Counted from the stretch's first letter, positions 28,612 through 62,422 are shown. The stretch: DNA of 64,000 nt from an uncultured Clostridia bacterium (GCA_944358655.1 CALVRO010000008.1:320-64319); one strand, 5' to 3'. Program-made: numbers and translations. The notes: generated by a model not told the origin, from the sequence alone.

Positions 28612-28620
28612 CAAGAAAAC

Positions 28621-38839: not shown

Positions 38840-39550
38840 ATGATCAAAATTGCCATTGTAGAGGACACCAAGTCCGACGTTGACAAAATTCTGTCGTACT
38901 TAAAGGATTTCTGCGCTGCGGAAAACATTGAGTACAAGGCCGAAGCCTTTACGGACGGCATGTTTTTTATCGACAAATCCAAGAACAACTACGACATCGT
39001 CGTGCTCGATATAGGCATGCCGCTGCTTGACGGTATGAGCACGGCCAAAAAACTGCGCGAAACGGGCTGGGGCGGGAACATAATCTTCGTCACCAACATG
39101 GCGCAATACGCCATTTCGGGTTACGAGGTCGACGCTTCGGCCTATCTTGTCAAGCCCGTCACCTACCCCGGCTTCGTGGCCGCGATAAAAAAGATACTCG
39201 CCAGGATGAAGATAAGGGGCGAGAAGGGCAGCGACATAGTCATCTCCTCCAAAAAGGGCGTGAACATAATCTCCCCGACCGACCTCAAGTACATACAGGT
39301 CGACGGGCACGACCTGTACTTCAACACCGTAAGCGGCGCGGTGTGTTATCACAGGCGGTCTTTAAAGGAGTTCGCCGCAGTGCTGCCCGAGGCGAGCTTT
39401 GCCTACTGCTCCAACTACTGCGTGGTCAACTTCGAGTTCATCTCCTGCCTGAAGGGCAACAAGGTCATTTTGTCCGACGGCACCGAGCTCGACATAACGC
39501 GCAGCAAAAAGAAGGACTTTATCGAGCGCTTCATGGCGTACATAAGGTGA
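38840..39550 (+). CDS. LytTR-family response regulator (TCS-1)
   Basis: Receiver domain (MIKIAIVEDT..., DIVVLDIGMP, phospho-Asp context) plus a C-terminal LytTR domain (IQVDGHDLYFNT...HRRSLKEF...FAYCSNYCVVN). RBS GGAGGAGG. The ORF-track start at 38798 was rejected. Confidence 0.92.
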   Translation: MIKIAIVEDTKSDVDKILSYLKDFCAAENIEYKAEAFTDGMFFIDKSKNNYDIVVLDIGMPLLDGMSTAKKLRETGWGGNIIFVTNMAQYAISGYEVDASAYLVKPVTYPGFVAAIKKILARMKIRGEKGSDIVISSKKGVNIISPTDLKYIQVDGHDLYFNTVSGAVCYHRRSLKEFAAVLPEASFAYCSNYCVVNFEFISCLKGNKVILSDGTELDITRSKKKDFIERFMAYIR

Positions 39551-39553
39551 ACC

Positions 39554-40849
39554 ATGGGCGCGATAGTTGAATTTTTCATACGCAATTTTTTTGTGTTTGA
39601 AATGATGATCTGCTACATTCCCTACATCCCGCTGCTCAAGGCCGACAAAAACAGCTGGTGGAAGGCGATCATCTCGGCGGCCGTGCTCGTCGTCTACTGC
39701 GTGCTGCCGATATGGCGGCATCAGTCGGACTCGGAAGTAGTGCTGAACATATTCGCCATAATGTCCTTCCTGTCGCAGTTTATTCTGACATGCGTGGGCA
39801 TAAAGCTCAGCTTCAGGTCGGACATATGGACGTGCATCTTCTGCGGCATAAGCGCCTACCTCACCCAGCACATCTTTTTCAGAACGCGCATGATAACCAA
39901 TGCGCTGCTTTCGGAGTTCGGCGTAGACATAGAGTGGGTCAACTATCTGTACTATTGGGGTGAGCTGGCGCTGGTCAATCTTCTGTGCTGGCTGTTCTTC
40001 GCCAGGGGACTGCAGAGGCAGGGCGCGTTCAGAATAAACAACAGGCGTCTGCTCATCATGTCGCTGGTGGCGCTGGTGGTGGTAAATTTCCTCAACACCA
40101 TCAGCATGATCTACTCCTTCACCATGCCCTTCGTGCCCCTGACGGCTTTCTATCTCTACGCGATGCTCGACTGCGTCATCCTGCTCTACTGCCTGTACGA
40201 GAATATCTACGTCAAGTCGATAGAGGACGAGGTAAAGGCCGTACACTCGCTGTGGCAGGAGGACAGGAAGAGGTACGAAATAGCCAAGAGCAGCATGGAT
40301 CTGCTCAACATGAAGATACACGACCTCAAATACCGCATCTCCGGCGCCATAGAGGACGAAACTACGCTCAAGGAAGTAACCAAGGCCATCGCCGCCTGCG
40401 ACGCCCTGCTGCACACCGACAACGAGGTGCTCGACGTAGTGCTGTCGCAGAGCAAGATGAGGTGCGACAGCAAGGGCATCCGCTTTTCGTGCATGGTCGA
40501 CGGCAAACTGCTCGACAGAATGAGCGCGGGCGACCTGTATTCGCTGTTCAGCAACGCCATCGACAACGCCGTTGAGTGCCTCGACAGGGTAGACGAGCCC
40601 GAAAAGAAGAGCCTGTCCGTTGTGGTGAAGCGGCTGAGCGACATGGCCGTGGTGCAGATAGAAAACTATGTGCCCAACGACGTCGCCTTTGTGGACGGCC
40701 TGCCGCAGACCACCAAGCCCGACAAGCTCAACCACGGCTTCGGCGTAAAGAGCATGAAGTATATAGTTAAAAAATACGGAGGATATATCAATTTCAGCAC
40801 GGACGACAACATTTTCCGCGTCGAAATGGTGGTGCCCGTCGCCGCCTGA
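39554..40849 (+). CDS. GHKL sensor histidine kinase, AgrC/HPK10-like, polytopic N-terminus (TCS-1)
   Basis: About 6-7 TM helices with short loops. H-box NMKIHDLKYRI, N-box LFSNAIDNAVEC, G-box HGFGVKSMKYIVKKYGG. Confidence 0.88.
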   Translation: MGAIVEFFIRNFFVFEMMICYIPYIPLLKADKNSWWKAIISAAVLVVYCVLPIWRHQSDSEVVLNIFAIMSFLSQFILTCVGIKLSFRSDIWTCIFCGISAYLTQHIFFRTRMITNALLSEFGVDIEWVNYLYYWGELALVNLLCWLFFARGLQRQGAFRINNRRLLIMSLVALVVVNFLNTISMIYSFTMPFVPLTAFYLYAMLDCVILLYCLYENIYVKSIEDEVKAVHSLWQEDRKRYEIAKSSMDLLNMKIHDLKYRISGAIEDETTLKEVTKAIAACDALLHTDNEVLDVVLSQSKMRCDSKGIRFSCMVDGKLLDRMSAGDLYSLFSNAIDNAVECLDRVDEPEKKSLSVVVKRLSDMAVVQIENYVPNDVAFVDGLPQTTKPDKLNHGFGVKSMKYIVKKYGGYINFSTDDNIFRVEMVVPVAA

Positions 40850-40927
40850 GCGCCCCGCAAAGGGCCGGTAAGGCGTTAACGGCGAGAAAACTCAAAAGAT
40901 AGGGGAGTCAAACGCTCCCCCGCGGTA

Positions 40928-40985
40928 AAAAGGCCCGCCCCGTCTTTCGAGACGGGGCGGGCCTTTGGCGTGTTCTTTTTTTCGT
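40928..40985 (+). terminator. Intrinsic terminator after TCS-1
   Basis: AAAGGCCCGCCCCGTCT-ttcg-AGACGGGGCGGGCCTTT, followed shortly by a T-run. Confidence 0.8.
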
Positions 40986-41111
40986 CCTCAGATATTTTGC
41001 GGCCTGTTTTGCGCCCCGGCGCGGCCATGCCGTCCGCCGTTCCACCGAATGATAGAAAATTTCATTTTTTGTAAGCCATGGCTGTTTGCGTGCAGGTTGC
41101 GGCGGGTCACA

Positions 41112-41140
41112 TTGACGTAAGCTCCCGCTGCGGTTACTAT
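41112..41140 (+). promoter_or_regulatory. Candidate promoter of GH3-A
   Basis: TTGACG, a 17-nt spacer, then TACTAT. The spacer and -10 are embedded in an inverted repeat GCTCCC...GGGAGC. Confidence 0.4.
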
Positions 41141-41215: not shown

Positions 41216-44200
41216 ATGAACAAAACCAAACGGATCGGCGCGGCCTCGGCAGCCATTCTGCTCGCATTGAGTATGAGCGCAACGGCAATGGTCACCCCCA
41301 TGGCTTCGGCGGCTACCGCCGGATCGACGGGCGGCAAGTACTACACCGACTTTGCGACGTACGAAGAAGAGCTCGAGTATGCCGAAAGGCTCAATCAGGA
41401 GATCTTTGCCGACTCTGTAGTTCTGATGAAGAACAAGAACAACGCTCTGCCGCTCAATATCGACACGGAGAGCGACATCTCGCTCGTGGGCATGTTGTCG
41501 TACAACATCATAACGGGCGGCACGGGCTCGGGCGCGGGCAACGGCGGTGATAGACTTATCACCATCGAGGACAACCTCAAGGCGACCGGTTTCAATATGA
41601 ATGAAAAGGCGGCCAACGCCTACAAGAATTCCACCCTCAGCACGGGTTCGGAAGCTCCCTCGTCCATTCTCAACAGCGCGAGCGGTTCCTTTAAATTCTA
41701 CGGCGACGCCGTCATCTGGACTATAGGCCGCGTGGGCGGCGAGGGCAACGACCTTGCATACTTCAATACAGACACCAACAAGGATACTTCCAAGCACGCC
41801 CTTGAACTCAACGACAACGAGCTCGACATGCTCGAATACCTCGAAGGCCTCAAGGACGCGGGCACGATAAAGAAATTGGTCGTCCTCGTCAACTCGGCCA
41901 ACGTATTTGAAATGGCTCCCCTCGAGGACAACGACAACGTCGACGCCATCCTCTGGATAGGTCAGCCCGGTGCGGCGGGTCTCGGCGGTCTGGGCAGAGT
42001 GCTGACGGGCGAAGTCAGCCCCTCGGGCAGGACGGCCGACATATGGAACGCCAACCACAAGAACGACCCCACATGGCAGAACACCGGTACGGCCGGAATG
42101 AACGGTACCGACCCCGACACCGGAGAGGCGTACACCAGCACGGCCTTCTACAAGAACGCAGAGGGCGAATATGTGGCCATCAAGGGTCGCGACAGCCGTG
42201 CGGGCATGGAAGAGTCCGGTAAGGTGATCGAATACGAAGAGGGCATATACATGGGCTATAAGTATTACGAGACGGCGGCAGCCGACGGAGTGCTTACCGA
42301 CCCTGACGTAGGCTACGTTGCCGCCGAGGGCACAATACCCGCCCAGCACGGCGCCGACGCATACTACAACCGTTCGACGGGCGTCGTATATCCCTACGGC
42401 TACGGCCTCAGCTACACCTCCTTCTCGCAGGAGTTGGTTACCACGGCCGGCGAGCTCGAAGCCGCCGTCAACGGCAAGAGCAAGCTCGACGACAAGGTCA
42501 GCGTACAGGTCACCGTCACCAACACGGGCAACGTTGCGGGCAAGGAAGTTGTTCAGCTCTACGTTCACGCCCCCTACATCGACGGCGGCATAGAAAAGGC
42601 CGAAGTTTCGCTTGTATCCTTCGGCAAGACGGGCCTTCTTCAGCCCGGCGAGAGCGAGACGGTCACCATGCAGGTGCGTCTCGGCGACATAGCCTCCTTC
42701 GACTATGACGACGCCAACGGCAACGGCTGGAAGGGCTACGAAATAGAGGCGGGCAACTACGAGTTCAGGCTTCAGAAGAACTCGCACGAGGAGATCGACG
42801 CCCTCGAAGTCGCCCTCACCGCAAAGACCACCACGCTCGACAACGACGGCGACGCCACCAACAACACTCCCTTCTCCAACGGCGACGACTTCGACTCGCT
42901 GCTCAACATCAAGGATAAGTCCACTGGCAAGGTAGACACCCCCACGGGCTATGAAGCAGGCGACTTCGACGTGACGGGCGAAGTGGGCGGCAAGATGACC
43001 ATAATGTCCCGCGCCGAAGACAAGGGCGGCCTTGCAGGCACCTTCCCCACGGCTCCCAAGGCCTCGGATATGCTGTACGGCAAGAGGGTCATCGAACTCC
43101 TTTACTGCTATGACGATATGGCCGACGTAGCCACCGAAACTTCAAGGTACACCAGCTACGCCGACAGCCGCAGCGACAAGCCCACCGACCCTTGGTACAA
43201 GACCGAAGCCGATATCCCCGCTTCGTGGACTCAGGGTGCGGGCACCAAGACTGCCGACGGCAAGTACGAGGTGCAGCTCGCCAACATGACGGGCATAGCC
43301 GCCGACGAAGAAGAGTGGGTAGAGTTCATGAACCAGTTTACATACGAAGAACTCATCACCATAATCAGCAGCAGCGGTTCGCCTGCAGTCACTTCGGTAG
43401 GCAAACCTTCTCTCAGCGCAGCCGACGGCCCCGGCCAGCTCTCCAACGGTACCTTCTGGTGCTGCGAAGTCAACATAGGTTCCACATGGGATCTTTCCCT
43501 CGCCGAAAAGCAGGGCCTTGCCATAGGCAACGAGTCGCTGTTCATGGGCATCACCGGTTGGTGGGGCCCCGGCGTCAACATCCATCGTTCTCCCTTCGGC
43601 GGCAGAAACTTCGAATATTATTCGCAGGATACCGTTCACGCAGGCCTCATGGTCGCCGCGGTAGTCAGCGCCTACGAGTCCAAGGGCGGCATAGCTTACC
43701 TTAAGCACTTTGCCGTCGACGACATGGAAAACGTCCGCTACGGCTGCGGCACGTTCGTAGACGAGCAGGCAATGCGCGAAAATTATCTCAAAGTATTCGA
43801 GTACGGCGTAAAGGAAGGCGGCGCGGGCGCCATGATGGCCTCGCACAACAGAATAGGCGCCATACAGAACTACGGCAACTGGGCTCTCACCACGGCCGTA
43901 GCCATCAATGAATGGGGCTTCGACGGCTATATCCAGTCGGATATGTACGTCGGCTACTCCAGGTGCTATTCGGTTCTCCGCAGCGGCGCCAGCATACTCA
44001 TGGGCAGCTTCAGCGGCAACAACAAGGTAACGGGCACATGGGACGCCACAGTCACCCGTGCAAACGGCGGCGTGGGCGCTGTCCGCGACGGCGTAGCCGG
44101 TGCCGACGGCACTGTTCCCGTATCCTACACGCAGTGGTACGCCGTGCGCAACGCGGCTCAAAGGCTGCTCTACATACAGGCCAACAGCAGCGTGCTCGAT

Positions 44201-45133
44201 AACGGCACCGACACTTCGGTATTCACCGACAAGACCTTCGAAGCCACTCAGAACGTTGAGTTCACCGCCTCCGTTGGGGTAAAGGCCGAGGATGTCAAGG
44301 CAACCGAACTTTCTTACAATCTTGAAGGCGCTCTGCCCGCAGGTCTGACTTTCGACTCCCTTACGGGCGAAATAAGCGGTACTCCCACCGAGTCCGGTGA
44401 GTTCACGGCAAGCGTAGAACTCGTAGCCGACGGCTGGGTGACCAAGACTGCCACGCTCACCTTCAAAATCAAACCCACCATCGAGGTCACGGTGACCACC
44501 GCCGAACCTGCCGTAGGCAGCGCGTTCGCGGCCACCGTTACCAACAACATCCCCGACTTCAAAGTCGTCGACAGGACCGAGGTAGAGGAGAACGAAGAGG
44601 AGGGCACCTTCTACACCGCAGCTTCGTTCAGCGCCGAGGGTCTGCCTGCAGGCCTTACGATAGACGAGGCCACGGGCGCCATCTCCGGCACACCCACCGA
44701 GGCGGGCACCTTCACCGTCATCGTCAAGCTCAACTACACCAAGACGATCGCCACACAGGGTGGCTTCGGCCCCGGCCCGTCCGACTTCGAACCCTTCGGC
44801 TTCGGCCCCGGCGGCCCCAGCGGCGGCGGCTTCCAGCTCAACGACGAACATGGCAGCTATGTGGCCGAAATAGTCATCACCATAGCGGGCACGGGCGAGG
44901 AGACCCCCGAACCTCCCGCAGGCGGCGTAACTGCCGAAGATATCGCCGATATCAACGACAGGCTCGACGCGCTTGAAGAAGCCATCTCCAAGGACAGCGG
45001 CTCCACCGACGGCGAAACTTCCGAAGGCGGCTGCGGCAGCACCGTGGGCTTTGCTTCGCTGGCTCTGGCAGTGCCCGTAATAGCTGCGGCATGGCTTGTG
45101 GCTGCAAAGGCACGCAAGAGGCAGGATAAGTAA
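41216..45133 (+). CDS. Secreted glycoside hydrolase family 3 (GH3-A), permuted domain order, He_PIG-type Ig repeats, GCGS/TM/basic tail
   Basis: RBS AGGAGG. Signal peptide MNKTKRIGAASAAILLALSMSATAMV. Domain order: alpha/beta-sandwich start VVLMKNKNNALPL ... GYGLSYTSF; then Fn3-like VTVTNTGNVAGKEVVQLYV; then the barrel domain GPGVNIHRSPFGGRNFEYYSQD, KHFAVDD and nucleophile context GYIQSDM. Two LPAGLTxD..TG.ISGTPTE.G Ig-like repeats. The tail is EGGCGS + TM + KARKRQDK. Confidence 0.92.
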   Translation: MNKTKRIGAASAAILLALSMSATAMVTPMASAATAGSTGGKYYTDFATYEEELEYAERLNQEIFADSVVLMKNKNNALPLNIDTESDISLVGMLSYNIITGGTGSGAGNGGDRLITIEDNLKATGFNMNEKAANAYKNSTLSTGSEAPSSILNSASGSFKFYGDAVIWTIGRVGGEGNDLAYFNTDTNKDTSKHALELNDNELDMLEYLEGLKDAGTIKKLVVLVNSANVFEMAPLEDNDNVDAILWIGQPGAAGLGGLGRVLTGEVSPSGRTADIWNANHKNDPTWQNTGTAGMNGTDPDTGEAYTSTAFYKNAEGEYVAIKGRDSRAGMEESGKVIEYEEGIYMGYKYYETAAADGVLTDPDVGYVAAEGTIPAQHGADAYYNRSTGVVYPYGYGLSYTSFSQELVTTAGELEAAVNGKSKLDDKVSVQVTVTNTGNVAGKEVVQLYVHAPYIDGGIEKAEVSLVSFGKTGLLQPGESETVTMQVRLGDIASFDYDDANGNGWKGYEIEAGNYEFRLQKNSHEEIDALEVALTAKTTTLDNDGDATNNTPFSNGDDFDSLLNIKDKSTGKVDTPTGYEAGDFDVTGEVGGKMTIMSRAEDKGGLAGTFPTAPKASDMLYGKRVIELLYCYDDMADVATETSRYTSYADSRSDKPTDPWYKTEADIPASWTQGAGTKTADGKYEVQLANMTGIAADEEEWVEFMNQFTYEELITIISSSGSPAVTSVGKPSLSAADGPGQLSNGTFWCCEVNIGSTWDLSLAEKQGLAIGNESLFMGITGWWGPGVNIHRSPFGGRNFEYYSQDTVHAGLMVAAVVSAYESKGGIAYLKHFAVDDMENVRYGCGTFVDEQAMRENYLKVFEYGVKEGGAGAMMASHNRIGAIQNYGNWALTTAVAINEWGFDGYIQSDMYVGYSRCYSVLRSGASILMGSFSGNNKVTGTWDATVTRANGGVGAVRDGVAGADGTVPVSYTQWYAVRNAAQRLLYIQANSSVLDNGTDTSVFTDKTFEATQNVEFTASVGVKAEDVKATELSYNLEGALPAGLTFDSLTGEISGTPTESGEFTASVELVADGWVTKTATLTFKIKPTIEVTVTTAEPAVGSAFAATVTNNIPDFKVVDRTEVEENEEEGTFYTAASFSAEGLPAGLTIDEATGAISGTPTEAGTFTVIVKLNYTKTIATQGGFGPGPSDFEPFGFGPGGPSGGGFQLNDEHGSYVAEIVITIAGTGEETPEPPAGGVTAEDIADINDRLDALEEAISKDSGSTDGETSEGGCGSTVGFASLALAVPVIAAAWLVAAKARKRQDK

Positions 45134-45251: not shown

Positions 45252-46181
45252 ATGAAAGGCAGAAAATCGATTGTAGCATTGTCCCTGCTGCTGGCAGGGC
45301 TTATGTCGTTTGCGTTCGTCGGCTGCGTCGGCCCCGGCGGTAACGAAGGCCCCGGCGGTAACGAAGGCAACGGCGGTAACGAAGGCAACGGCGGTAACGA
45401 AGGCAACGGCGGCAACCAGGGCGAGCAGGGAGGCGGCACCATAGACGAAGATTTCGCCTATGCCGACTACCTCATCGGCCACGAGGACGGCAAGGAGGTC
45501 ACCTATGTGTTCGAGGCCGAGTGCACCGACCTCGGCAACAAGAGCGGCCCCGCCTGGTCGGGCTCCTACGCCGAGGACAGCATGATAAGCGTGGCGGAGG
45601 GCGCCAGCGGCGGCGCCGCCGTGCAGGGGCTCTGCAAGTATGGTAACTCCCTAAATTTCCTCGTCGTCGCCGACAGGGACATAGACGACGCCACCCTCGT
45701 CCTGCAGCTGGGCAACATTTTTAAGGGCGGAATGACCCTTACAAGCTCCAACTATGCCATCAGGGTGGACACCATCGTCACGGACGAGGATCTGCTCCCC
45801 GTCGCGGAGGGCGGAGCCATCGGCGCATGGGACGAAAAATTCCTTTGGTTCTACGAAGATATCGAAGAAACGGGCGGATACTATATCACAGACTGGGAGT
45901 GCGGCGACATAACCTTCGCTCCTCCCTCCGATTTCACCGCGGGCAACATCTACATGGGCGACGCCGAAGGGTACACCATAACCGCCGAGCTCACCTTGAA
46001 AAAGGGCGTCAACTGCATTTCGCTCATCACTTACAATGGTCCGCAGGAGATAATTGGCACCACGCTGACTTCGTATGCGCCCGCCGTCGACTGCATAGAG
46101 ATAACCACCGACGCTCAGATGGGCATGTACTACAACGAGCCCAACGGCGGCTACAACGATAACGGCTGCTTTATAAAATAA
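45252..46181 (+). CDS. Lipoprotein with a Gly/Asn/Glu repeat linker and a CBM6/35-like domain
   Basis: Signal plus lipobox SFAFVGC. Then (GNEGxG) x5. Then YVFEAECTDL...CIEITT, which resembles the CBM6/CBM35-like beta-sandwich proteins that begin with an (F)EAE motif. The ATG at 45252 follows GAGG. Confidence 0.72.
   Translation: MKGRKSIVALSLLLAGLMSFAFVGCVGPGGNEGPGGNEGNGGNEGNGGNEGNGGNQGEQGGGTIDEDFAYADYLIGHEDGKEVTYVFEAECTDLGNKSGPAWSGSYAEDSMISVAEGASGGAAVQGLCKYGNSLNFLVVADRDIDDATLVLQLGNIFKGGMTLTSSNYAIRVDTIVTDEDLLPVAEGGAIGAWDEKFLWFYEDIEETGGYYITDWECGDITFAPPSDFTAGNIYMGDAEGYTITAELTLKKGVNCISLITYNGPQEIIGTTLTSYAPAVDCIEITTDAQMGMYYNEPNGGYNDNGCFIK
45330..45419 (+). repeat. 18-bp in-frame tandem repeat x5 (GNEGxG linker)
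   Basis: ggc(c/a)(c/a)cggcggtaacgaa repeated head-to-tail five times. Confidence 0.9.
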
Positions 46182-49137: not shown

Positions 49138-49182
49138 AACCTCCCTTCCGTAGGATATTTTACGGACGATCACCCGATCTAA

Positions 49183-49215
49183 AAAGCTCTGTTTCGCTAA
49201 GAAACAGAGCTTTTA
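49183..49215 (+). terminator. Intrinsic terminator after GH3-B
   Basis: AAAGCTCTGTTTC-gctaa-GAAACAGAGCTTT followed by T. Confidence 0.8.
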
Positions 49216-49557
49216 CCTTATTATAATTATAGCGTGATTTTAGCGTGACTATAGTATAAAATAATGCCGCAAAGGGCGGGTGTTTTTTTAAAGTTCAATA
49301 AAACCGATAATCAAGCAGTTAGGGATAGATCTCCTCAAATTTATCCGGCCAAGCCATCTGGTCAACCTGCGCTAAGTCATGGGCGCCGACGGTCAGACGG
49401 TGACGGTGGCGGGACACAAGCTGGCTATGTCGCGTTCGCGGCGCAAAGAATTCATGCACTATCTAAGGTCTTATCTAATGAGGATTCATAGTGAACGGGC
49501 GCGGACGAGTAAATCCTGTCCGCGCCCGTGATTTTGGCTATAATATCTGAGTTGATA

Positions 49558-49779: not shown

Positions 49780-49844
49780 ATTGCAATTTTATCGTCGGTT
49801 TTATAAAAGTGCTCGCAAAGTATAATGCTTATATGCCTGTCCTG

Positions 49845-51900: not shown

Positions 51901-52014
51901 GTGTGAATAGTATTAAGATGGCAATAAAACTGTGTCATAACAGATAATTATTCCATATTTTAATTTTGGCAAACGATTGGCAAACAAATTTATAATCATG
52001 TAAAGACCACAAAC

Positions 52015-52089: not shown

Positions 52090-52634
52090 CGGAGCCGTTT
52101 CGGGGATAATGGCTTTCGGGTACACTTGTTCCATTGTCGGCGCAAATGCCGTTTTGCGGAAATGCTTGTAGCCTCACATTTCCCTGCAACTTTGCTTTGT
52201 TGCGCGTCTCAAACGGCGCAAGGGAAACGCCGTTTTCGGTCACCACGTCGGGCGGACATATGCCCTCGTTCACCTCGCAAGGCAAAACAACACACTGTGT
52301 TGTTTTGAGAATACCTTGCTCGCCCTCTTTCGCGCAAAAGCGATGGTTTTGCGCGAGGTTTGGGATGGTATTTGTTGAATGATAAACTTTGCTTTTAGCG
52401 GGGCGGCGCATTTGCGCCGCCCCGCGATTTCCGTCGTTGCGCTTCTCACACGGCGCAAGGACAACGCCGTTTTCGGTCACCGCGTCGGGCGGACTTATGC
52501 CCTCTTCGCGCAAAAATTTTTTTGCGGGAGCCCTTTTGGAACACAGAAGTTAAGCTCGTCTACGGACGGGCAAGCGAAGCGCCGCTTTGGGGGCACAGCC
52601 GAATAATATGTAATTAGCCATCCAAGGCTCGGGA
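52090..52634. repeat. Mosaic intergenic repeat element, copy 2 (expanded)
   Basis: It shares two terminal blocks with copy 1. It also carries an internally duplicated ~75-bp submodule (52201-52275 and 52437-52510), a CAAAACAAC hairpin (52277-52319) and a GC hairpin (52398-52425). Confidence 0.75.
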
Positions 52635-52845
52635 TTATATTTATTATGTTCCTTTCTCTGTATATCGCATGGCGGATATGAACCGTGTGATACGGAGAAT
52701 ATATTTTTGTCGCGTGCGCGCGGATGCGCGCACGAAAGGAAAAGTAACGCGGCGTGAAAGTATTTGTTGTTTTCTGAAATATACTTTCGTGTTTTTTCGT
52801 GCAATGTGTAAACCGTGCTCAAAATTTGCAAGTTGTGCAAAAAAT

Positions 52846-52874
52846 TTGAGTTGTGCCTCCCCGTGGGGTATGAT
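52846..52874 (+). promoter_or_regulatory. Candidate promoter of GH3-C, overlapped by an 18-nt tandem direct repeat
   Basis: TTGAGT (52846-52851), a 17-nt spacer, then TATGAT (52869-52874). The repeats aaaatttgcAAGTTGTGC / aaaaatttgAGTTGTGC span 52821-52856. Confidence 0.45.
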
Positions 52875-55900: not shown

Positions 55901-56268
55901 ACAACTACGACAGAGATATCACTTACACCGTAACGGGTCTGCCCGCAGGTCTTACGTTCAACGCTCAGACGGGCGTGATCTCCGGCACTCCCACCATGTC
56001 GGGCGACTTCGAAGTGGTAGTCACGGCCTCCGCCGAAGGCTACGAGAGCGCCACGCATGTGTTCGACCTCACCGTCGAAGCGGTTGAGGAGCCCGATGTC
56101 GATCCCGGCCCCGGCCCCGATGTCGATCCCGGCCCCGATGTCGATCCCGAACCCGACACCGATACCGATGAGGGCGGATGCGGCTCGTTCATCGGCGGCG
56201 TAACGGCATTTGCCGCTGCCATCCCCGTCATTGCGGCTGTAGCTTATATCCGCAGAAAGAGGTCGTAA
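52939..56268 (+). CDS. Secreted glycoside hydrolase family 3 (GH3-C), permuted order, one He_PIG Ig repeat, GCGS/TM/basic tail
   Basis: RBS AGGAGGG before the ATG at 52939 (the ORF-track start at 52669 was rejected). Signal peptide ...AALLLSSAALVNVNIASA. MILVKNVNNALPV ... GYGMSYTTF ... RVTNTGAVAGKEVVQLYY ... GMNIHRSPFDSRYTEYYSED, KHFAFHN, GAMVTDI. LPAGLTFNAQTGVISGTPT. The tail is DEGGCGS + TM + RRKRS. Confidence 0.92.
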   Translation: MYQATKSKKTARFVAATLSAALLLSSAALVNVNIASADEGEPLFVSDYSSKAEAVQAGLDLNLQIAEEGMILVKNVNNALPVATTAANKTKVTVLGYAGVNPNAGASANGGDSSAGSAIALENVYGSLEQANYELNPIVKAQYEAWNKMADAEGKLIAASDSAIANLSGADSFAEKAKGWTNLDEYGTAFVVLSKGANATGDGEGERVHSLQLDEEQFDLVDYAVENFDKVVVLVNSCTPIELQAINNNTGVDAIVMIGEPGDNGFAALGKVLNGTVNPSGRLTDTWAVDFTKNPSYVNFNAAAGTDIMGAGNPWGTDGNGQEVGYTKYTVNGEEVDTWAVGYEEGIYVGYRWYETAYAEIAAGNYAPTGYTAADADDWYADSVVYPFGYGMSYTTFDWEVFPVQADGAIAKGDTLVYDVRVTNTGAVAGKEVVQLYYTAPYTEGGIEKAAVNLGDFAKTDILAPGESQVVRLEIAVNDMASYDEVTDKTYVLDAGNYVINIAANAHEATVGAEDKYTYNLAVKALVDTAVTGNEVTNQLDDVTQGFNEEYTALSREDFAATMPDTPDATRAITEAEYAEFAFENGDFDDKYAADLDVTYATTTEGREDKYEIILSDMIGADADDPRFMEMVEQLTIEEMVEFINGGGFHSLAIDYLGVPYAHNTDGPKGWTGSGVDANDRFNYFSSEPMIAATYNKELFYEMGLMIGEQGLWGNSTQESGTAYSYTGWYAPGMNIHRSPFDSRYTEYYSEDPVLTGMTAANISLGAKEKGCYITMKHFAFHNDGGGASTYRAGAISADSNPEAGLAAWMTEQTAREIYLKGYQICTEDGEATYVMGSFTRIGNTWCGGSYAINKAILRDEWGFKGAMVTDIVLYNSVNAYQLVTSGGGLMLTGFMGGIYLDAAAINAMEDGKTKDVIIYGMQQSIAQNLYMVANSNAMQIPKGAKIIYDPTTKNEFDEDVELTLADAKQGEAYTSVNIAVATYNTNYNYDRDITYTVTGLPAGLTFNAQTGVISGTPTMSGDFEVVVTASAEGYESATHVFDLTVEAVEEPDVDPGPGPDVDPGPDVDPEPDTDTDEGGCGSFIGGVTAFAAAIPVIAAVAYIRRKRS
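56092..56165 (+). repeat. In-frame ~18-bp tandem repeat (PDVDPG)n linker
   Basis: cccgatgtcgatcccggc occurs about three times, encoding PDVDPGPGPDVDPGPDVDPEPDTDTD just before the GCGS tail. Confidence 0.85.
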
Positions 56269-56431: not shown

Positions 56432-57112
56432 ATGAAACTGTTAAAAAAACTTGCCATGGCTGTAATAGCTCTGTGCATGGTAGGCTCCGTATTTGCGTTC
56501 GCGGCTTGCGGCAACGGAGATGAGGGCGGCGATAACGGCGGCAACGAAAACAACAACGGCCAGACCGGCGGCGGGGAAGAAGAGGGAGAGCCTCCCGCAG
56601 GCGAGGGCTCGAATCTGCGGTTCGAGGCAGAGCACACCGACGTTTCCGAGCTTTTAGGCTTCGGCCCTTCCGGTTCGCCCGTGGGGCTCGGCCTCATTCA
56701 GAGGAACGCCTCCGCCAGCGGCGGCGCCTATCTCGCCTATCTCGGCGAGAACAGCCCCGTCACCTTCACGCTTACGGCGTCGGCCGAGGTCACGGGCGCG
56801 CTCCGCATAAGGGTGGGCAGCAATTCCCTCGGCACATGCACATGGGATCCTCAGTCGCTGGTCATCACCGTAAACGACCAACCAGTAAGTTATTCGGCGT
56901 TTGAAACGTCCAACGGCGACGGGCAGAACTTTAAAACCGTTCTCCTCGGCGACGTCACGCTCAACGAGGGCGAAAACGAGATAGTGTTCGTCGCGGGCGA
57001 CAACAAATATCTCAACAACCTTCCTTCGGCTCCCTCGCTGGACTACATAATGCTGACAACAACGTCCTCTGCCACCGTCGAAATGGAATACTTTGCAAAC
57101 GGGCTTTCGTAA
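56432..57112 (+). CDS. Lipoprotein with a Gly/Asn/Glu-rich linker and a CBM6/35-like domain (paralog of 45252-46181)
   Basis: Signal plus lipobox VFAFAAC, an acidic/Gly linker, then LRFEAEHTDV...GGAYLAYLG...LDYIMLTT. RBS AAAGGAG. Confidence 0.78.
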   Translation: MKLLKKLAMAVIALCMVGSVFAFAACGNGDEGGDNGGNENNNGQTGGGEEEGEPPAGEGSNLRFEAEHTDVSELLGFGPSGSPVGLGLIQRNASASGGAYLAYLGENSPVTFTLTASAEVTGALRIRVGSNSLGTCTWDPQSLVITVNDQPVSYSAFETSNGDGQNFKTVLLGDVTLNEGENEIVFVAGDNKYLNNLPSAPSLDYIMLTTTSSATVEMEYFANGLS

Positions 57113-57139: not shown

Positions 57140-60100
57140 ATGAAATTTATCTGGAAACATCTCGCAACGCGCGTGTGGATGATAGTTTCGAGCATACTGC
57201 TCGTGCTTGCCGTCGTCATAACGTGCGTTCTGACCACCGTTCCGATCGTCGGCAACTCGCTGTCGCTCGTGTTCGGCGGCGAACGCGCCAACATTGTTGA
57301 AGACCACAGGGACGAGCTGTACGACAGGGAATTCAAGAGCAAGGATGAGGCCCGCGCCGCGGCCGAAGACTTCGTGATCGAAGTCGAAAAGGAGGGCGCC
57401 ATTCTTCTCAAGAACGAAAACGGCGCTCTGCCCCTCGCGGGGCAATCCCCCGCCGTGTCGGTTTTCGGTAAAAATTCCGTAAATCTCGTCTACACGGGTT
57501 CGGGTTCGGCAAACTCGTCGGGCGGCGCAAACAAAACGCTGTACGAAAGTCTTGAAGCCGCGGGCATAACATATAATCCCACGCTCAAATCCTTCTACGA
57601 AAATTCCTCCCGTTCGGGCAGCGGTCGTCCCGCAAATCCTGGCATGAATTCCGGCCAGCGCATCTCCGGCTTCGGCGTGGGCGAAACTCCTGTCGCGTCC
57701 TACGGCGGCGATATAACTTCCTCGTATGCCGAATACGACGACGCCGCAATAGTCGTCATCTCCCGTATCGGCGGCGAGGGCTGGGATCTTCCCCGCACCA
57801 TGCTCACCTCGTTCGGCGGCGAGCCCATGGAGGAGGCCGCCTCGGCGGACAGCCACTATCTCGAACTCAACAAGCACGAAATTGCCCTGCTCGATCACGT
57901 TAAATCGCACTTCGATACTGTCATAGTCCTCCTCAACACGGGCACCACCATGGAGATGGGGGCGATACAGAGCGACGAGGGTATAGACGCGGTGCTGTGG
58001 ATGGGCTATCCCGGCGCCACGGGCGTTATGGCCATAGGTCAGCTCCTCAGGGGCGTGGATGAAAGCGGCGCCGAGCTCAGTCCTTCGGGCTACACCACCG
58101 ATACATGGGCGGCCGACTTCACGGCCGATCCTTCGTGGTATAACTCCACCATATACGACCCCGCGTGGAAGCTTGGGGACGACGACGCCGAAGGGCACGG
58201 CAACCGCTATCTCTACCGCAACAGGGACGGCGAACTCAGAAAGTCGTTCTATGCCTTCGTCAACTACGAAGAGGGCGTCTATGTGGGCTACCGCTATTGG
58301 GAGACGCGCGGCTATGAGGAGCTGCAGGATGATCCCGCCTCCACATGGTACGCCGAAAACGTAATATATCCCTTCGGCTACGGCCTCTCGTACACCACGT
58401 TCGAGTGGGACGTTACCTTCTCGGCGGCCGACGGCTCGGCCATAAACGGCGACAGCACGATAACTGCCGAGGTCACCGTCACCAACACGGGCGACTATGC
58501 CGGCAAGGACGTCGTTCAGCTCTACTACACGGCGCCCTACATTGCGGGACAAATTGAAAAACCCTACGTCGTTCTGGGCGACTTCGCAAAGACGCCCACT
58601 CTCTATCCTGCGGACGAGGCGGGCGAGGACAGACCCAACAGCTGCACGCTCACTCTGTCGATAGACGCGCGCGACATGGCCTCCTACGACTATGCCAACA
58701 TGAACAAAAACGACAGCGCGTGCTATGAACTTGACCCCGGCGACTACACCGTCAGCATACGTTCGGACGCGCATACTGCCGAGGCAAGCGCAACTTACGC
58801 GCTCTCCGAAGAGGTCATTTACGATACCGACACCGACGCGCGCGGCAACGAAGTGACTATAGAAAACCGCTTTGACGACGTCAGCGCGGGCCTCAATGGC
58901 GACTGGACTTATGATTCCTTCGTAAAGCGCAGCGATTTTGCCGGCACGCTTCCTTCGGGCTACATCTCCGAAGAGGAGCGCACCCTCACCGACGACCAGA
59001 AGGCGGCCCTCGATAAGAGCGCCAACTCCTTCGACTACACCGATTCGGACGAGGGTAAGCCCTGGCAGGTAACGGGCGAAGGGCCCTCGACCACGCCCGT
59101 GGATAACGGCCTGTCCCTAAGAGATCTGCTGTATGACGACAACGGCGAGTATGTTGGCGAGGTCGACTTCGACGATCCCCGCTGGGAAGATCTTCTGGAT
59201 GAGATCCCCCTTGCCGAAATGAAGGAACTTGTAGGCTACGCCGCCTTCCGTACGGGGCCCGTGGACGGCATAAACGGCGTCGTCGCCAAACCCGCCACCA
59301 CCGATTCCGACGGCCCTTCGGGCTTTACCAGCTTTGTCAGCGAATCGGTAATCAACGGTACCTGTTCCTATCAGGGCGAATGTGTCATGGGTGCTACCTG
59401 GAACGTCGAACTCGCGGAGAGGATGGGTCAGCTCGTCGGCGAGGAGGCCCTCGCCGGCAACGAAAAGGGCGACGGCATGCCCTACACCGGCTGGTACGCC
59501 CCCGCCGTAAACATCCACCGCTCGCAATTCGGCGGCCGCAACTGGGAGTACTATTCAGAGGACGGCCTGCTCTCCGGCAAGCTTGCCGCAGGCGTCGTCA
59601 CGGGCGCGAAGGAAAAGGGCGTTGTGTGCTATCTCAAACACTTTGCCGTCAACGATCAGGAGACCGACCGCGAATTCAACGGCATACTCGTATGGGCCAA
59701 CGAACAGGCTATACGCGAAATTTATCTTAAGCCCTTCGAAATAGCCGTAAAGGAGGGAGGAGCTTCCGGTATGATGTCCTCCTTCAACCGCATAGGCATG
59801 ACGTGGACTGGCGGCAGTTACGCGCTTCTCACCGAGATACTGCGCGACGAATGGGGATTCCGCGGGTCTGTCATCACCGACTACAGCATGAACCTGTACA
59901 CGCAGGTCGACCTGATGATACGCGCCGGTGGCGACCTCTTCCTCACGCAGGACACTAAGATCTTCGCCAAGCCCGACGACGCAACGCAGGTAACGCTCCT
60001 GCGCAACGCCACAAAGAATATTTTGTACAACACGGTCAACAGCAACGTTATGAGCGTGGTGGTGGACGGCTATAAACTGCCCATATGGCAGGTCGTGCTC

Positions 60101-60199
60101 ATCTGCGCCGACGTGGCCGTCGTCGTGGGCATTGCCGCATGGGGCGTAGGCGTAATACTCGCCGCAAGGAAGAAGGACGGTTCCGGTAATGCGGGCTGA
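57140..60199 (+). CDS. Membrane-bound glycoside hydrolase family 3 (GH3-D) with N- and C-terminal TM helices
   Basis: N-terminal TM VWMIVSSILLVLAVVITCVL. AILLKNENGALPL ... GYGLSYTTF ... VTVTNTGDYAGKDVVQLYY ... AVNIHRSQFGGRNWEYYSED, KHFAVNDQE, GSVITDY. C-terminal TM LPIWQVVLICADVAVVVGIAAWGVGVIL followed by AARKKD. Confidence 0.92.
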   Translation: MKFIWKHLATRVWMIVSSILLVLAVVITCVLTTVPIVGNSLSLVFGGERANIVEDHRDELYDREFKSKDEARAAAEDFVIEVEKEGAILLKNENGALPLAGQSPAVSVFGKNSVNLVYTGSGSANSSGGANKTLYESLEAAGITYNPTLKSFYENSSRSGSGRPANPGMNSGQRISGFGVGETPVASYGGDITSSYAEYDDAAIVVISRIGGEGWDLPRTMLTSFGGEPMEEAASADSHYLELNKHEIALLDHVKSHFDTVIVLLNTGTTMEMGAIQSDEGIDAVLWMGYPGATGVMAIGQLLRGVDESGAELSPSGYTTDTWAADFTADPSWYNSTIYDPAWKLGDDDAEGHGNRYLYRNRDGELRKSFYAFVNYEEGVYVGYRYWETRGYEELQDDPASTWYAENVIYPFGYGLSYTTFEWDVTFSAADGSAINGDSTITAEVTVTNTGDYAGKDVVQLYYTAPYIAGQIEKPYVVLGDFAKTPTLYPADEAGEDRPNSCTLTLSIDARDMASYDYANMNKNDSACYELDPGDYTVSIRSDAHTAEASATYALSEEVIYDTDTDARGNEVTIENRFDDVSAGLNGDWTYDSFVKRSDFAGTLPSGYISEEERTLTDDQKAALDKSANSFDYTDSDEGKPWQVTGEGPSTTPVDNGLSLRDLLYDDNGEYVGEVDFDDPRWEDLLDEIPLAEMKELVGYAAFRTGPVDGINGVVAKPATTDSDGPSGFTSFVSESVINGTCSYQGECVMGATWNVELAERMGQLVGEEALAGNEKGDGMPYTGWYAPAVNIHRSQFGGRNWEYYSEDGLLSGKLAAGVVTGAKEKGVVCYLKHFAVNDQETDREFNGILVWANEQAIREIYLKPFEIAVKEGGASGMMSSFNRIGMTWTGGSYALLTEILRDEWGFRGSVITDYSMNLYTQVDLMIRAGGDLFLTQDTKIFAKPDDATQVTLLRNATKNILYNTVNSNVMSVVVDGYKLPIWQVVLICADVAVVVGIAAWGVGVILAARKKDGSGNAG

Positions 60200-60351
60200 C
60201 TTTTCTCCGCAAGGCACAATAAATAGTTAACGGTAACGGTATGCTCCGCTTTCAAGGGGCATACCGTAAGCTGCTGTTAGGGGAATTTGATTTTTGTATA
60301 AAAACCGCTCTTCGGCCGAAGGGCGGGGAATGCGGCTTAACTGGAGGATAT

Positions 60352-61056
60352 ATGCTCAATATAGCAATAGTCGAGGACGACGCCGCGGACGCGGAACTGC
60401 TTAAGAGTCACATAAAAAAATACGAAGCCGAGACGGGCACGGCGATGAAAGTGCAGGTCTTTCGCGACGGGGAACTCTTTCTTCTCAACTATAAAACGCA
60501 CTTCGATATCGTCTTTATGGATATCAAACTCGTCGGCATAGACGGGATGGAGGCTGCCCGCAGGCTGCGTACCATCGATCAGAAGATAGTCATAGTCTTT
60601 GTAACCAGCATGGCTCAGTACGCCATAAAGGGTTACGAGGTCGACGCCTGCGATTTCGTAGTAAAGCCGCTCTCTTATGCCGATTTTTACATAAAGATGC
60701 GCAGGGCGGTCGAGCGCGTCAAAAAGGATGATACCGACATGATAACCGTCAAGGCGCCAGGTAATATCGTAAAGATCTCCGCGTCGTCCGTCTACTATGT
60801 CGAAGTGATCAAGCACGACCTCATCTGGCATACAGTCGGCGGCGAGATCAGGTCGCATGGCACCATGCGCGAGGTGGAGGAAATGCTGCGCCCTTTTTCC
60901 TTCTACAGGGTGCACCACAGCTATCTGGTAAATCTCGCCTATGTGTTTGCCGTTCGCGGCGACACCATAACCGTCAACGACGTTACAATAAACATCAGTC
61001 GTGCCAAGAAGGGGGATTTCATGGCGAAGTTTGCGCAATTTGCCAAAAAGAGGTGA
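60352..61056 (+). CDS. LytTR-family response regulator (TCS-2)
   Basis: MLNIAIVEDDAAD..., DIVFMDIKL, and a LytTR C-terminus (YYVEVIKHDLIWHT...FYRVHHSYLVNL). RBS GGAGGA. The ORF-track start at 60241 was rejected. Confidence 0.92.
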   Translation: MLNIAIVEDDAADAELLKSHIKKYEAETGTAMKVQVFRDGELFLLNYKTHFDIVFMDIKLVGIDGMEAARRLRTIDQKIVIVFVTSMAQYAIKGYEVDACDFVVKPLSYADFYIKMRRAVERVKKDDTDMITVKAPGNIVKISASSVYYVEVIKHDLIWHTVGGEIRSHGTMREVEEMLRPFSFYRVHHSYLVNLAYVFAVRGDTITVNDVTINISRAKKGDFMAKFAQFAKKR

Positions 61057-61060
61057 CGCG

Positions 61061-62422
61061 ATGGACACCCTGTTTATCGTAGAGGAGTGGAGGTTCATTC
61101 TCGAACTGCTCTGCGCCGAATTCATATTCGTAACGCCGTCGGCTCGCAAACGGCCGCGGTTTGTCCTGCGCGCCGCTGCGGGCGTGGCGGTATGTATGGC
61201 GATAGCCCTGCTCTATTGGTTCATATGGGAAGCAAGTATAACCGTTTACGCGGTGAATATGGTTGCGCACATAGGCTGGTATATCTTCATGACGGGATGT
61301 TCGATGGCCTGCATGGTATTTTGCTACCGCATTTCGCCCGGCTGGCTGCTCTTTTGCGGCATAGCCGGCTATGCCCTGCAGCATGTGGAGTATGTCGCCG
61401 TCAATGAAATATTCGCTCTCGGCATTTGCCCGCAGATACTCGGCAACGTTCCGCTGTATATCGCCCTGATAGCGGGCACATATGCCGCCGTCTGCGTGTG
61501 CGCGGCGCTCATATTCCGCCCCAAGCTCAAAGCTCTGGGTGATATCCCGTTTGCAAAAAAGCCGGTTGCACTCTGTTTTTACAGCCTGCTCCTCGCCATG
61601 CTCATCGCCTCGGCCTTCATGGCGCAGCTGCTCTTCCATAACGGCGGAGGAAAGCCCGTGCAGAATCCCAACTACATCGCCGGCATAGCCGATATCTTCA
61701 ACTGCGTATTCGTGCTGATAATCATGTATGCGTCTTTAAACGTGCGCGAACGGGACAGGCGCAACGACATAATAAACCAGATGCTCATCGCCTCTGCCGA
61801 AAGCTACCGCGTAAAGAAGGAGACGATAGATATCATAAACAGCAAGTGCCATGATTTAAAGCATCAGATAGGCGCGTTGCGCACTCTCTCGCCCGAAGAA
61901 CAGCGGTCGCGCATAGATGAGATCGAAAAGCGCATAATGTTCTACGATCTCTCCGTGGATACGGGGAACGAGGTCATAAATACCATAATCGCCGAAAAAA
62001 TGCTCTACTGCACGGAAAACAACATAAGGCTGTATGTCAGCGGCAACGGCAAAAAGCTGGGTTTTATGGATACCGTCGATCTGTTCACGCTGCTGGGCAA
62101 CGCTCTGGATAACGCCGTGGAGAGTGTGATGCGTTTTAATTCTGGGGACAGGCGCGTAATCAATTTTGCCATGGAAGAACAGGGCGACATCATGCTCATC
62201 CGCATGGATAACTATTACGAAGGCGAAATATCCTTCGTCAACGGCCTGCCGCGCACCAGCAAGGGCGATAATTATTATCACGGCTTCGGACTTTCGAGCA
62301 TACGCAAGATTGCCGAAAAGTACGACGGCGGCATTTCCATAGGTACGGACGGGGGTATATTCACTCTGCAGATCGTCCTCCCCGTGCCCGCCGCAGATGA
62401 CCGGTTAAAAGCAGAAGAATAA
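61061..62422 (+). CDS. GHKL sensor histidine kinase, AgrC/HPK10-like (TCS-2)
   Basis: Polytopic N-terminus. H-box SKCHDLKHQIGAL, N-box LLGNALDNAVES, G-box HGFGLSSIRKIAEKYDG. The ATG at 61061 lies 4 nt after the regulator stop. Confidence 0.88.
   Translation: MDTLFIVEEWRFILELLCAEFIFVTPSARKRPRFVLRAAAGVAVCMAIALLYWFIWEASITVYAVNMVAHIGWYIFMTGCSMACMVFCYRISPGWLLFCGIAGYALQHVEYVAVNEIFALGICPQILGNVPLYIALIAGTYAAVCVCAALIFRPKLKALGDIPFAKKPVALCFYSLLLAMLIASAFMAQLLFHNGGGKPVQNPNYIAGIADIFNCVFVLIIMYASLNVRERDRRNDIINQMLIASAESYRVKKETIDIINSKCHDLKHQIGALRTLSPEEQRSRIDEIEKRIMFYDLSVDTGNEVINTIIAEKMLYCTENNIRLYVSGNGKKLGFMDTVDLFTLLGNALDNAVESVMRFNSGDRRVINFAMEEQGDIMLIRMDNYYEGEISFVNGLPRTSKGDNYYHGFGLSSIRKIAEKYDGGISIGTDGGIFTLQIVLPVPAADDRLKAEE

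Follow-up and report, generated by a model that had tools for sequence, protein, structure and literature searches.

A conserved cassette of LytTR regulator, AgrC-type kinase and doubly anchored GH3 glycosidase, found in two paralogous copies in an uncultured Clostridia bacterium

Histidine kinases of the HATPase_c_5 (AgrC-type) class, paired with LytTR regulators, are drug targets and the textbook case of quorum sensors for peptides. LytTR systems are not confined to peptides: BtsS/BtsR and YpdA/YpdB of E. coli and LytS/LytT of Bacillus sense pyruvate. Here we analyse a 64,000-nucleotide stretch of DNA from an uncultured Clostridia bacterium (GCA_944358655.1 CALVRO010000008.1:320-64319; hereafter the window), in which positions 38840 to 62422 carry two five-gene modules, each composed of a response regulator (RR), a histidine kinase (HK), two glycoside hydrolases of family 3 (GH3) and a lipoprotein (LP). 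A first-pass annotation of this DNA, made from the sequence alone, had taken LytTR regulators with kinases of this type (HPK10) to be classically peptide sensors; the assignment to the HATPase_c_5 and LytTR classes was confirmed, while the generalisation is too narrow in view of the pyruvate systems just named. We consider it likely that the modules are two paralogous copies of a cassette, widespread in gut bacteria, that serves as a substrate-inducible surface-glycosidase system; the AgrC-type kinase here probably controls carbohydrate foraging.

The closest described loci are those of Butyrivibrio proteoclasticus B316, in which each of three LytTR regulators has in its vicinity a secreted GH3 bearing a C-terminal membrane helix (PUL7, 21 and 33), and for which a shared role in carbohydrate sensing was proposed (Kelly et al. 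2010, PMC2914790). As in the present locus, a LytTR regulator is placed by a surface GH3 whose C-terminus carries a membrane helix, and each genome has several such loci. The B316 account is a one-sentence annotation remark without kinase class, N-terminal anchor, promoter sites, phyletic spread or reciprocity, and the B316 genes were not among the 80 best kinase loci of our survey, their membership of the same kinase subfamily being unconfirmed. In addition, the Roseburia locus Ros-7 is listed with a LytTR regulator plus a kinase by Sheridan et al. (2016, PMC5320581), and a LytTR gene found by cellulase genes in Cellulosilyticum ruminicola is 11.5-fold up on xylan (PMC5733062). The LytTR-GH3 association itself is thus already known from one genome, and the description of the present locus as a new pairing in the first-pass annotation was overstated, given this link in B. 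proteoclasticus and the regulator with its kinase in Roseburia. We found no functional or comparative study of the cassette in the literature.

Linkage of the kinase to a doubly anchored GH3

The ten-gene, two-module layout put forward in the first-pass annotation is real: open reading frame (ORF) and Pfam checks placed all ten genes on the + strand, with coordinates and domain architectures that match. Module 1 begins with RR1 (38840..39550), which has a receiver and a LytTR DNA-binding domain (Pfam Response_reg 1.1e-13, LytTR 1.6e-8), and HK1 (39554..40849), which has a HATPase_c_5 domain (9.9e-22), seven predicted membrane helices and an invariant His256; these are followed by GH3-A (41216..45133), LP1 (45252..46181) and GH3-B (46198..49137). 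Module 2 begins with GH3-C (52939..56268), LP2 (56432..57112) and GH3-D (57140..60199) and ends with RR2 (60352..61056), again with receiver and LytTR domains by Pfam, and HK2 (61061..62422), a polytopic HATPase_c_5 histidine kinase (1.3e-23). Both kinases score above the Pfam cut-off for HATPase_c_5 and have a GHKL catalytic domain of that type, and by domain content the two pairs are HATPase_c_5 kinases with LytTR regulators.

We searched one genome for each of 185,579 species with an alignment of 30 kinases and examined the best 80 of at least 585 relatives, with up to 10 kb of flank per side, scoring the presence of a GH3 at each locus by six-frame profile search. A GH3 was found within 6 kb of the kinase at 75 of the 80 loci, within 3 kb at 68 and within 500 bp at 40. 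It lies downstream on the same strand at 57 loci, upstream and divergent at 13, and in the module 2 arrangement, upstream on the same strand, at five. At four of the five loci without a GH3 the contig runs on for less than 2.2 kb downstream; L046 alone has ample flank. Sixteen loci had at first been scored as lacking a GH3 under greedy longest-ORF calling; nine long neighbours with no Pfam match, or an immunoglobulin (Ig)-like match only, were antisense shadow ORFs laid over real GH3 genes. The nearest complete GH3 is helix-anchored at both ends at 51 of 70 loci.

The linkage also holds in the reverse direction. When metagenome contigs were searched with an alignment of doubly anchored GH3s, and GH3s with at least 4 kb on each side were kept, a kinase or regulator was present within 8 kb of 17 of the 20 doubly anchored GH3s, compared with one of three GH3s lacking the helices. 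The first-pass annotation had made its proposal depend on whether the linkage is conserved in relatives, and it is (75/80 forward, 17/20 reverse). The conserved core of the cassette is a LytTR regulator, a seven-helix kinase and a doubly anchored permuted GH3, a predicted exo-glycosidase of the cell surface. In both copies in the window, this core is extended by a second, C-terminally tethered GH3 with Ig domains and by a lipoprotein.

Carriers range over Clostridia, Bacilli/Mollicutes-like lineages, Coriobacteriia and Bifidobacterium. The clostridial carriers include uncultured genomes (with Borkfalkia, Coproplasma, Scatosoma, Protoclostridium and Christensenella in their titles), Lachnospiraceae, Roseburia, Acutalibacteraceae and Pseudoflavonifractor; those in the Coriobacteriia are Olsenella, Thermophilibacter and Tractidigestivibacter, and Bifidobacterium myosotis is a carrier as well. 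Cultured among them are Olsenella uli DSM 7084 (L041), B. myosotis DSM 100196 (L051), Thermophilibacter provencensis (L036), Tractidigestivibacter montrealensis (L063) and Pseudoflavonifractor intestinihominis (L068), to which the literature adds B. proteoclasticus B316, with the reservation on its kinase subfamily given above. Several metagenome-assembled genomes hold more than one cassette (L013 and L057, L044 and L056, L049 and L080, L059 and L090).

Genes for peptide signalling do not recur beside the cassette. Among the neighbours of 75 loci (73 large and 122 small proteins, 195 in all), the only recurrent large families were GH2 (six) and MFS_2 (three), and small families had three members at most; no AgrB or peptidase-exporter family was among the top neighbour families, in a survey of ORFs of 90 codons or more. 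Within the window, neither an AgrB-like gene nor a peptide exporter nor a sugar transporter was present among the ORFs scanned, which bears out three absences noted in the first-pass annotation (an AgrB/AgrD pair, a peptide exporter and a sugar transporter). The curated AgrC equivalog model (NCBIfam) gave HK2 20.3 bits against a cut-off of 500 and did not match HK1. The features that define Agr and Com systems, namely pheromone and processing genes and a kinase that fits the AgrC model, are thus absent from the cassette, as far as ORFs of 90 codons or more show.

Two further gene arrangements were seen among relatives. A recurrent one is that of Lachnospiraceae-like loci (L022, L060 and L074, also L032 and L088), in which the regulator and kinase are followed by an anchored GH3 of about 1,045 residues, proteins of about 143, 800 and 184 residues and a GH3 of about 810 residues; the gene of about 800 residues may be a GH2, because GH2 matched six of the 73 large neighbours taken as a whole. 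At L011 and L012, whose kinase is a relative at 31% identity, the order is GH2, regulator, kinase, GH78 rhamnosidase, MFS_2 transporter, a small protein and GH3, a gene set that suggests deglycosylation of plant rhamno-glucosides.

Enzymes, promoters and surroundings of the two modules

All four GH3s have, by Pfam, the permuted order Glyco_hydro_3_C, Fn3-like, Glyco_hydro_3 N-domain. The same order occurs in the solved enzymes 5wug and 5k6l, with residues 44-423 and 18-383 of which residues 84-501 of GH3-B align, and in which the (alpha/beta)6 sandwich likewise precedes the TIM barrel. GH3-B has in addition a membrane helix at each end and linkage to a kinase-regulator pair. In GH3-B, Asp876 aligns with the nucleophile D242 of Thermotoga Bgl3B (2x40), and the Glu of the motif GGEGFD with its acid/base E458; nucleophile and acid/base are both invariant in 24 doubly anchored GH3s. 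Because the catalytic Asp and Glu are conserved, the partner GH3 would be an active enzyme and not a dead receptor. The GH3 models gave E-values of 1e-57 to 1e-67 for glucosidase and arabinopyranosidase and 0.03 for beta-N-acetylhexosaminidase, the enzymes matching the BglX, beta-glucosidase and xylosidase types.

The description of the triad in the first-pass annotation, as a secreted GH3, a lipoprotein and a doubly anchored GH3, held for the last of these and needs to be amended for the first. Hydropathy gives GH3-B and GH3-D a hydrophobic helix at either terminus. In GH3-A and GH3-C a signal peptide precedes the permuted GH3; these two have additional He_PIG Ig domains (two in GH3-A, one in GH3-C), and are not simply secreted: after the motif GC[GN]xS (GGCGS in both) come a membrane helix and a basic tail of the KRK type (RRKRS in GH3-C). 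Because GH3-A and GH3-C end in this way, they are predicted to be tethered instead of freely secreted, as are all three proteins of each triad. Similar tails, with GC[GN]xS, a membrane helix and a Lys/Arg-rich end, were seen at L013, L033, L040, L056 and L076 (compare 45040-45133 in GH3-A and 56180-56268 in GH3-C). Among sorting-signal models, the best match to tails of this type was Synerg-CTERM at 14.9 bits (cut-off 22.5), on the tail of an orthologue; the tails in the window gave 0.056 to a MYXO-CTERM protein family, or nothing. The tail looks like a Cys-containing sorting signal, and may be one that is undescribed in Clostridia.

LP1 and LP2 have lipobox-like signal peptides and matched no Pfam or NCBIfam family. 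In LP1 the signal peptide is followed by a Gly/Asn-rich linker and a domain remotely related to LP2; the two gave no direct BLASTP match at 1e-3 and are linked only via a third protein, an ORF at L089 that both match. No Pfam domain was found in any of 27 homologues of LP2. Foldseek searches with a model of LP2 returned, as the top 50 matches, mainly carbohydrate-binding modules (CBMs) of families CBM35, CBM6 and CBM36, with probability 1.0 and a TM-score of about 0.7 (about 0.73) on target length, and LP2 is accordingly modelled as a CBM35-like beta-sandwich; the term CBM-like lipoprotein used in the first-pass annotation was apt for it. LP2 also directly matches the long GH3 of L066, an enzyme with a similar domain fused at its end, and the long GH3s of L028, L069, L079 and L083 have C-terminal sequences like that of L066. 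By sequence likeness, this would be a fusion-type link of lipoprotein to enzyme.

An AlphaFold2 model of HK1 (predicted local distance difference test score, pLDDT, 82) has seven membrane helices joined by loops of two to eight residues, followed by a dimerisation helix with His256 and the catalytic domain, which agrees with the earlier statement that the kinases have almost no extracytoplasmic loops. The residues His256, Asn334, Asn338, Gly395 and Gly397 (phospho-acceptor, N and G boxes) are invariant in the 30 aligned kinases. HK1 had no sequence match among solved structures, and a fold search with the kinase sensor domain returned only generic cytoplasmic kinase cores; the core fits AgrC no better than it fits other kinases. 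The closest solved full-length relative of RR2 is ComE (4cbv). A plasmid collection searched with HK2 gave no match.

The two modules are each preceded, upstream of the glycosidase genes, by a pair of direct repeats beside a weak promoter. In module 1 the repeats (41070..41103, + strand) are TGTAAGCCATGGC, starting at 41070, and TGCAGGTTGCGGC, starting at 41091; the promoter of the GH3-A/LP1/GH3-B operon (41112..41140, + strand; TTGACG-17-TACTAT, 9/12) has its -35 element starting at 41112. In module 2 they (52807..52838, + strand) are TGTAAACCGTGC, starting at 52807, and TGCAAGTTGTGC, starting at 52827, and the promoter of the GH3-C/LP2/GH3-D operon, which possibly also includes RR2-HK2, lies at 52846..52874 (+ strand; TTGAGT-17-TATGAT, 9/12), its -35 element starting at 52846. 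The repeats are thus 21 bp apart and 21 bp from the -35 element in module 1, and 20 bp apart and 19 bp from it in module 2. Tandem direct repeats about two helical turns apart by a weak -35 element are the geometry of AgrA, ComE and PlnC/D sites. The layout of repeats and weak promoter is typical of LytTR activators, and both repeat pairs are candidate regulator sites.

These repeats are the best-conserved upstream blocks among orthologous loci: those of module 1 are kept in L001 and L005, those of module 2 in L093 and L094 (the latter with a lipoprotein only 47% identical), and the -35 element of the module 1 promoter is also kept in orthologous loci. In a non-circular check, a matrix built from module 2 alone ranked the module 1 site third among about 128,000 window positions, and the converse matrix ranked the module 2 site twelfth. 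A search for repeat sites upstream of RR1 or RR2, as expected under autoregulation, found none. A family-wide regulator motif was likewise rejected: the matrix from close orthologues is barely enriched upstream of distant GH3s, of which 13% lie above the 95th background percentile.

The sensor genes of module 1 have a separate, strong sigma-70-like promoter (38493..38520, + strand; TTGACA-16-TAAAAT with TG, 11/12 consensus), a candidate constitutive promoter of the sensor operon. A G+C-rich hairpin with a T-run between HK1 and GH3-A (40929..40984, + strand) is its likely terminator. Further terminator-like or terminator hairpins follow GH3-B (49182..49214, + strand) and HK2 (62424..62448, + strand), and no recognised terminator was found between GH3-D and RR2.

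Three other features of the non-coding DNA were observed. At 14652-14682, TGCATTTTGTTG and TTAAGTTGTGA, separated by 7 bp, form the second-best match in the window to the matrices of both modules. From this site it is 29 bp to a perfect TTGACA-17-TATAAT promoter, which belongs to a MazE/AbrB-like gene (14770-14997) and an ABC-2 transporter (14994-16495); its geometry is unlike that of the GH3 promoters, and it could be a chance match or a third target. A G+C-rich palindrome at 52707-52735 (GCGTGCGCGCGGATGCGCGCACG), about 100 bp upstream of the GH3-C repeats and kept in L093 and L094, could terminate a unit that lies upstream, or be a further regulatory site. Finally, two copies of a non-coding element, about 89% identical, occur at 14048-14296 and 52090-52634 (with an internal duplication of 52191-52267 at 52428-52504): one copy is just upstream of the module 2 promoter region, and the second precedes the MazE-like/ABC-2 operon. 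This may be a small intergenic element of the mobile or repetitive kind.

The first-pass annotation described the modules as duplicated and as clearly diverged paralogs, and of these the second description was accurate. Identities between the modules are low: 35% for RR1 and RR2, 31% for HK1 and HK2 (over the C-terminal half only, by BLASTP), 39.5% for GH3-B and GH3-D and 29% for GH3-A and GH3-C. Since GH3-A is 31% and GH3-C 36% identical to GH3-D, GH3-A and GH3-C are alike in architecture without being each other's closest relatives. A local tandem duplication is ruled out. Orthologues of module 1 (L001, L005, L010 and L013) keep its gene order in unrelated flanks; the kinase homologues at L001, L005 and L010 (65%, 47% and 34% identity) stand in the order RR-HK-GH3-X-GH3, no second module lies beside these three cassettes, and L001, L005 and L013 have orthologues of RR1. 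Module 2 has its own orthologues in L093 and L094, identified by LP2 homologues at 83% and 47% identity, with the order GH3-LP-GH3-RR-HK and with different flanks, a cation ATPase beside one and ribosomal protein genes beside the other. GH3-D shares up to 46% identity with GH3s of other genomes, more than with GH3-B. For RR2 and HK2, too, there are relatives elsewhere that are closer than RR1 and HK1; kinases of other GH3-linked loci align with HK2 along its whole length at 30-34% identity. Because each module has its own orthologues and nearer relatives elsewhere, the modules are two ancient paralogues of a multi-copy family, lying side by side.

Between the modules, the GC content of the stretch 49215-52000 falls to about 40-41% at its lowest, compared with 51-60% in neighbouring stretches. 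This stretch, which contains an AAA_14/DUF4143 ATPase (50626-51900) and small ORFs of no family, is probably an insertion. Directly upstream of module 1 is a SipW-like (archaeal-type) signal peptidase I (37007-37762), adjoined by a protein with a weak surface-domain match (36189-36929), a pairing that resembles SipW with its dedicated substrates. Elsewhere the window holds housekeeping and surface or toxin genes, among them an M20 peptidase, MnmA, the ABC-2 transporter and RHS toxins. A 3,518-residue protein (3315-13871) has an S8 subtilase domain, a Listeria-Bacteroides repeat and 16 blocks of BspA-type leucine-rich repeats, and its gene contains 360-bp DNA repeats in tandem that are about 90% identical (12417-13376). 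A nitrogen-assimilation cluster on the - strand (18141-26193) comprises a type III glutamine synthetase, an ammonium transporter-P-II fusion, glutamate synthase subunits and an ANTAR regulator. Two RHS-repeat genes (28600-33060 and 33715-35346) share a 1.2-kb duplication at 99% identity (31281-32483 and 33588-34790), a pattern known from RHS toxin loci that keep an alternative C-terminal tip in reserve.

Substrate induction and rival explanations

The cassette could work as follows. The sensor pair would be made at a basal level, in module 1 from its own strong promoter, ahead of a terminator, and in module 2 as the last genes of the GH3 operon. The little tethered GH3 then present would cleave an external glycoside or oligosaccharide at the membrane, and a cue derived from this reaction, either the product or the substrate itself, would be sensed inside the membrane bundle of the kinase, because the kinase has no domain outside the membrane. 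The phosphorylated regulator would bind the two direct repeats by the weak -35 element and switch on the GH3 operon, giving substrate-induced, feed-forward expression. Binding to the repeats and activation by the regulator, a carbohydrate-derived cue and this mode of perception by the kinase are inferred. Observed directly in the sequences are the architectures, the two-way linkage, the lack of recurring peptide-signal genes, the conservation of the repeats, promoter geometry and catalytic residues, and the modelled fold of LP2.

Several observations weigh against such a system, or limit how far it can be generalised. A kinase without an external domain would be an unusual receptor for a hydrophilic sugar. 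The best-matching NCBIfam equivalog models (arabinopyranosidase, beta-glucosidase and xylosidase) score the GH3s far below their cut-offs, and no substrate was assigned. Because the repeat motif is only weakly enriched at distant loci, regulator binding is supported, by sequence conservation, for these two modules and not for the whole family. Transporters are rare in the cassettes of relatives (MFS_2 in three of the 73 large neighbours) and there is none in either module; for most cassettes, the use of the released sugar is thus not accounted for. At L009 and L046 the kinase-regulator pair has no adjacent GH3, and from these two loci the kinase subfamily may have targets other than GH3. The literature yielded no expression, binding or activity data for any member of the cassette. 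The L009 pair itself precedes proteins of no known kind with Glug and BspA-repeat domains, with a GH3 lying 7 kb upstream, past an integrase.

A second explanation, which we regard as possible and clearly less likely than substrate induction of this kind, makes the doubly anchored GH3 a part of the sensor: its N-terminal helix, its C-terminal helix or both would touch the seven-helix bundle of the kinase and relay binding or turnover within the membrane, and the regulator would still activate the GH3 operon. The choice of partner is consistent with this, since it is specifically a GH3 with helices at both ends that is linked to the kinase, forward and reverse, and the kinase has no external domain of its own. 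The C-terminal segment of the doubly anchored GH3 is conserved beyond hydrophobicity, with a P-x-W motif at the outer face and, in 37 of 70 enzymes, a helix whose outer half contains an acidic residue; in the kinase, helix 4 is the most conserved membrane segment (consensus FCGIxAYxTQHIxYR), with polar residues and an invariant Gln105. These likenesses have to be set against the absence of the acidic residue from about half of the partners and against twelve loci at which the adjacent GH3 has no C-terminal helix. Kinase and GH3 distances correlate overall (Mantel r = 0.59), but for distant pairs r falls to -0.09, compared with 0.53 for kinase and regulator; the correlation comes from close orthologues only, which leans against tight co-evolution. 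Nor does any kinase column convincingly covary with the acidic residue of the GH3 helix: the best p-value was about 2e-4 over about 1,000 tests, uncorrected for relatedness and in scattered columns. The first-pass annotation had raised the GH3 or the lipoprotein as possible co-sensors, an idea to which these two sequence tests lent nothing. Direct contact between kinase and GH3 is possible but unsupported, and we consider it rather doubtful that a large, cross-phyla subfamily of AgrC-type kinases reads, by intramembrane contacts and not through peptides, whether a glycosidase fixed in the membrane by both of its ends is active or occupied. If it did, the cassette would be an enzyme-coupled two-component sensor, a Gram-positive counterpart of the Bacteroides sensor-enzyme cassettes with many substrate-specific copies per genome.

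It is improbable that the pair serves peptide quorum sensing, with a secreted peptide whose gene lies elsewhere or is small and unannotated, and with the GH3s as density-controlled public goods. The classical role of HATPase_c_5 and LytTR proteins would fit, genes below 90 codons were not called in the surveys, and the products of surface glycosidases are shared, as density control would imply; on the other side stand the lack of recurrent AgrB-like or peptidase-exporter genes at 75 loci and in the window, the poor fit to the AgrC equivalog model, and genomes with several cassettes, each with its own GH3 (L013/L057, L044/L056 and L049/L080), which fit substrate-specific sensors better. Least probable of all is an envelope function, in which the tethered GH3s would trim surface glycans of the cell itself (wall polysaccharide, glycolipid or exopolysaccharide) while the kinase monitors membrane or envelope, for although the predicted tethering of all three triad proteins, the lack of a linked transporter, sensing within the membrane and the existence of NagZ-type wall-recycling enzymes in GH3 would suit it, the GH3s match BglX, glucosidase and xylosidase types and not NagZ, the CBM35-like modules and the GH2, GH78 and MFS_2 genes of relatives point to external plant or host glycans, and cassettes are multi-copy and diverse per genome. 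Both of these explanations rank below substrate induction and below coupling of the enzyme to the sensor.

If the GH3 link and the lack of pheromone genes hold functionally, a large AgrC-type kinase subfamily would have a non-peptide input. Substrate induction would then explain how Gram-positive gut bacteria (among them the little-studied Christensenellales-like lineages, Lachnospiraceae, Coriobacteriia and some bifidobacteria) time the deployment of surface glycosidases. Three core genes and a promoter with defined repeats also make a compact test system, and possibly glycan-responsive switches.

Comparison with known systems

The cassette shares the combination of a polytopic HATPase_c_5 sensor and a LytTR regulator with AgrC/AgrA of S. 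aureus, ComDE, BlpHR, PlnBCD, FsrCA and VirSR. The likeness to Agr-type systems extends to the candidate tandem direct repeats beside a weak -35 element and to ComE as the closest solved relative of RR2. It differs from them in that no pheromone precursor, AgrB or peptidase exporter was found here and the conserved partner is an enzyme. With BtsSR, YpdAB and LytST it has in common a LytTR regulator and, on the proposed mechanism, would share nutrient sensing embedded in the membrane and control of a neighbouring carbon-acquisition gene, but these systems have 5TM-Lyt, GAF and His_kinase domains instead of HATPase_c_5, and their targets are transporters, not glycosidases.

A sensor placed beside glycosidases, in many paralogous cassettes, is also found in the hybrid two-component and SusR loci of Bacteroides and in the LacI, AraC or AraC-type RR loci of Firmicutes (PMC5320581). 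The sensors of those carbohydrate loci have large periplasmic or external sugar-binding domains or binding proteins, whereas the present kinases lack an external domain and in most cases have no transporter linked to them. By a definition attributed to Sheridan and colleagues, a Gram-positive utilisation locus is said to hold a degradative enzyme, a transport system and a regulator in one cluster; because no transporter is linked, the cassette is not a full utilisation locus in that sense. Among intramembrane-sensing kinases, BceS, DcuS and LiaS work with the accessory proteins BceAB, DctA/DcuB and LiaF, respectively. They resemble the present kinases in their minimal external loops and in having their genes beside that of a membrane protein that could give the input, which here would be a glycosidase. 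To our knowledge, there is no precedent for a glycosidase as the accessory input partner of a kinase.

Overall, the cassette would work like the regulator-plus-enzyme systems of carbohydrate use, while drawing on the kinase and regulator classes of peptide quorum sensing. New here are a linkage that is reciprocal and, across phyla, near-universal; a core partner in the form of a permuted GH3 with two anchors; the repeats at the promoters; and the modelled fold of LP2.

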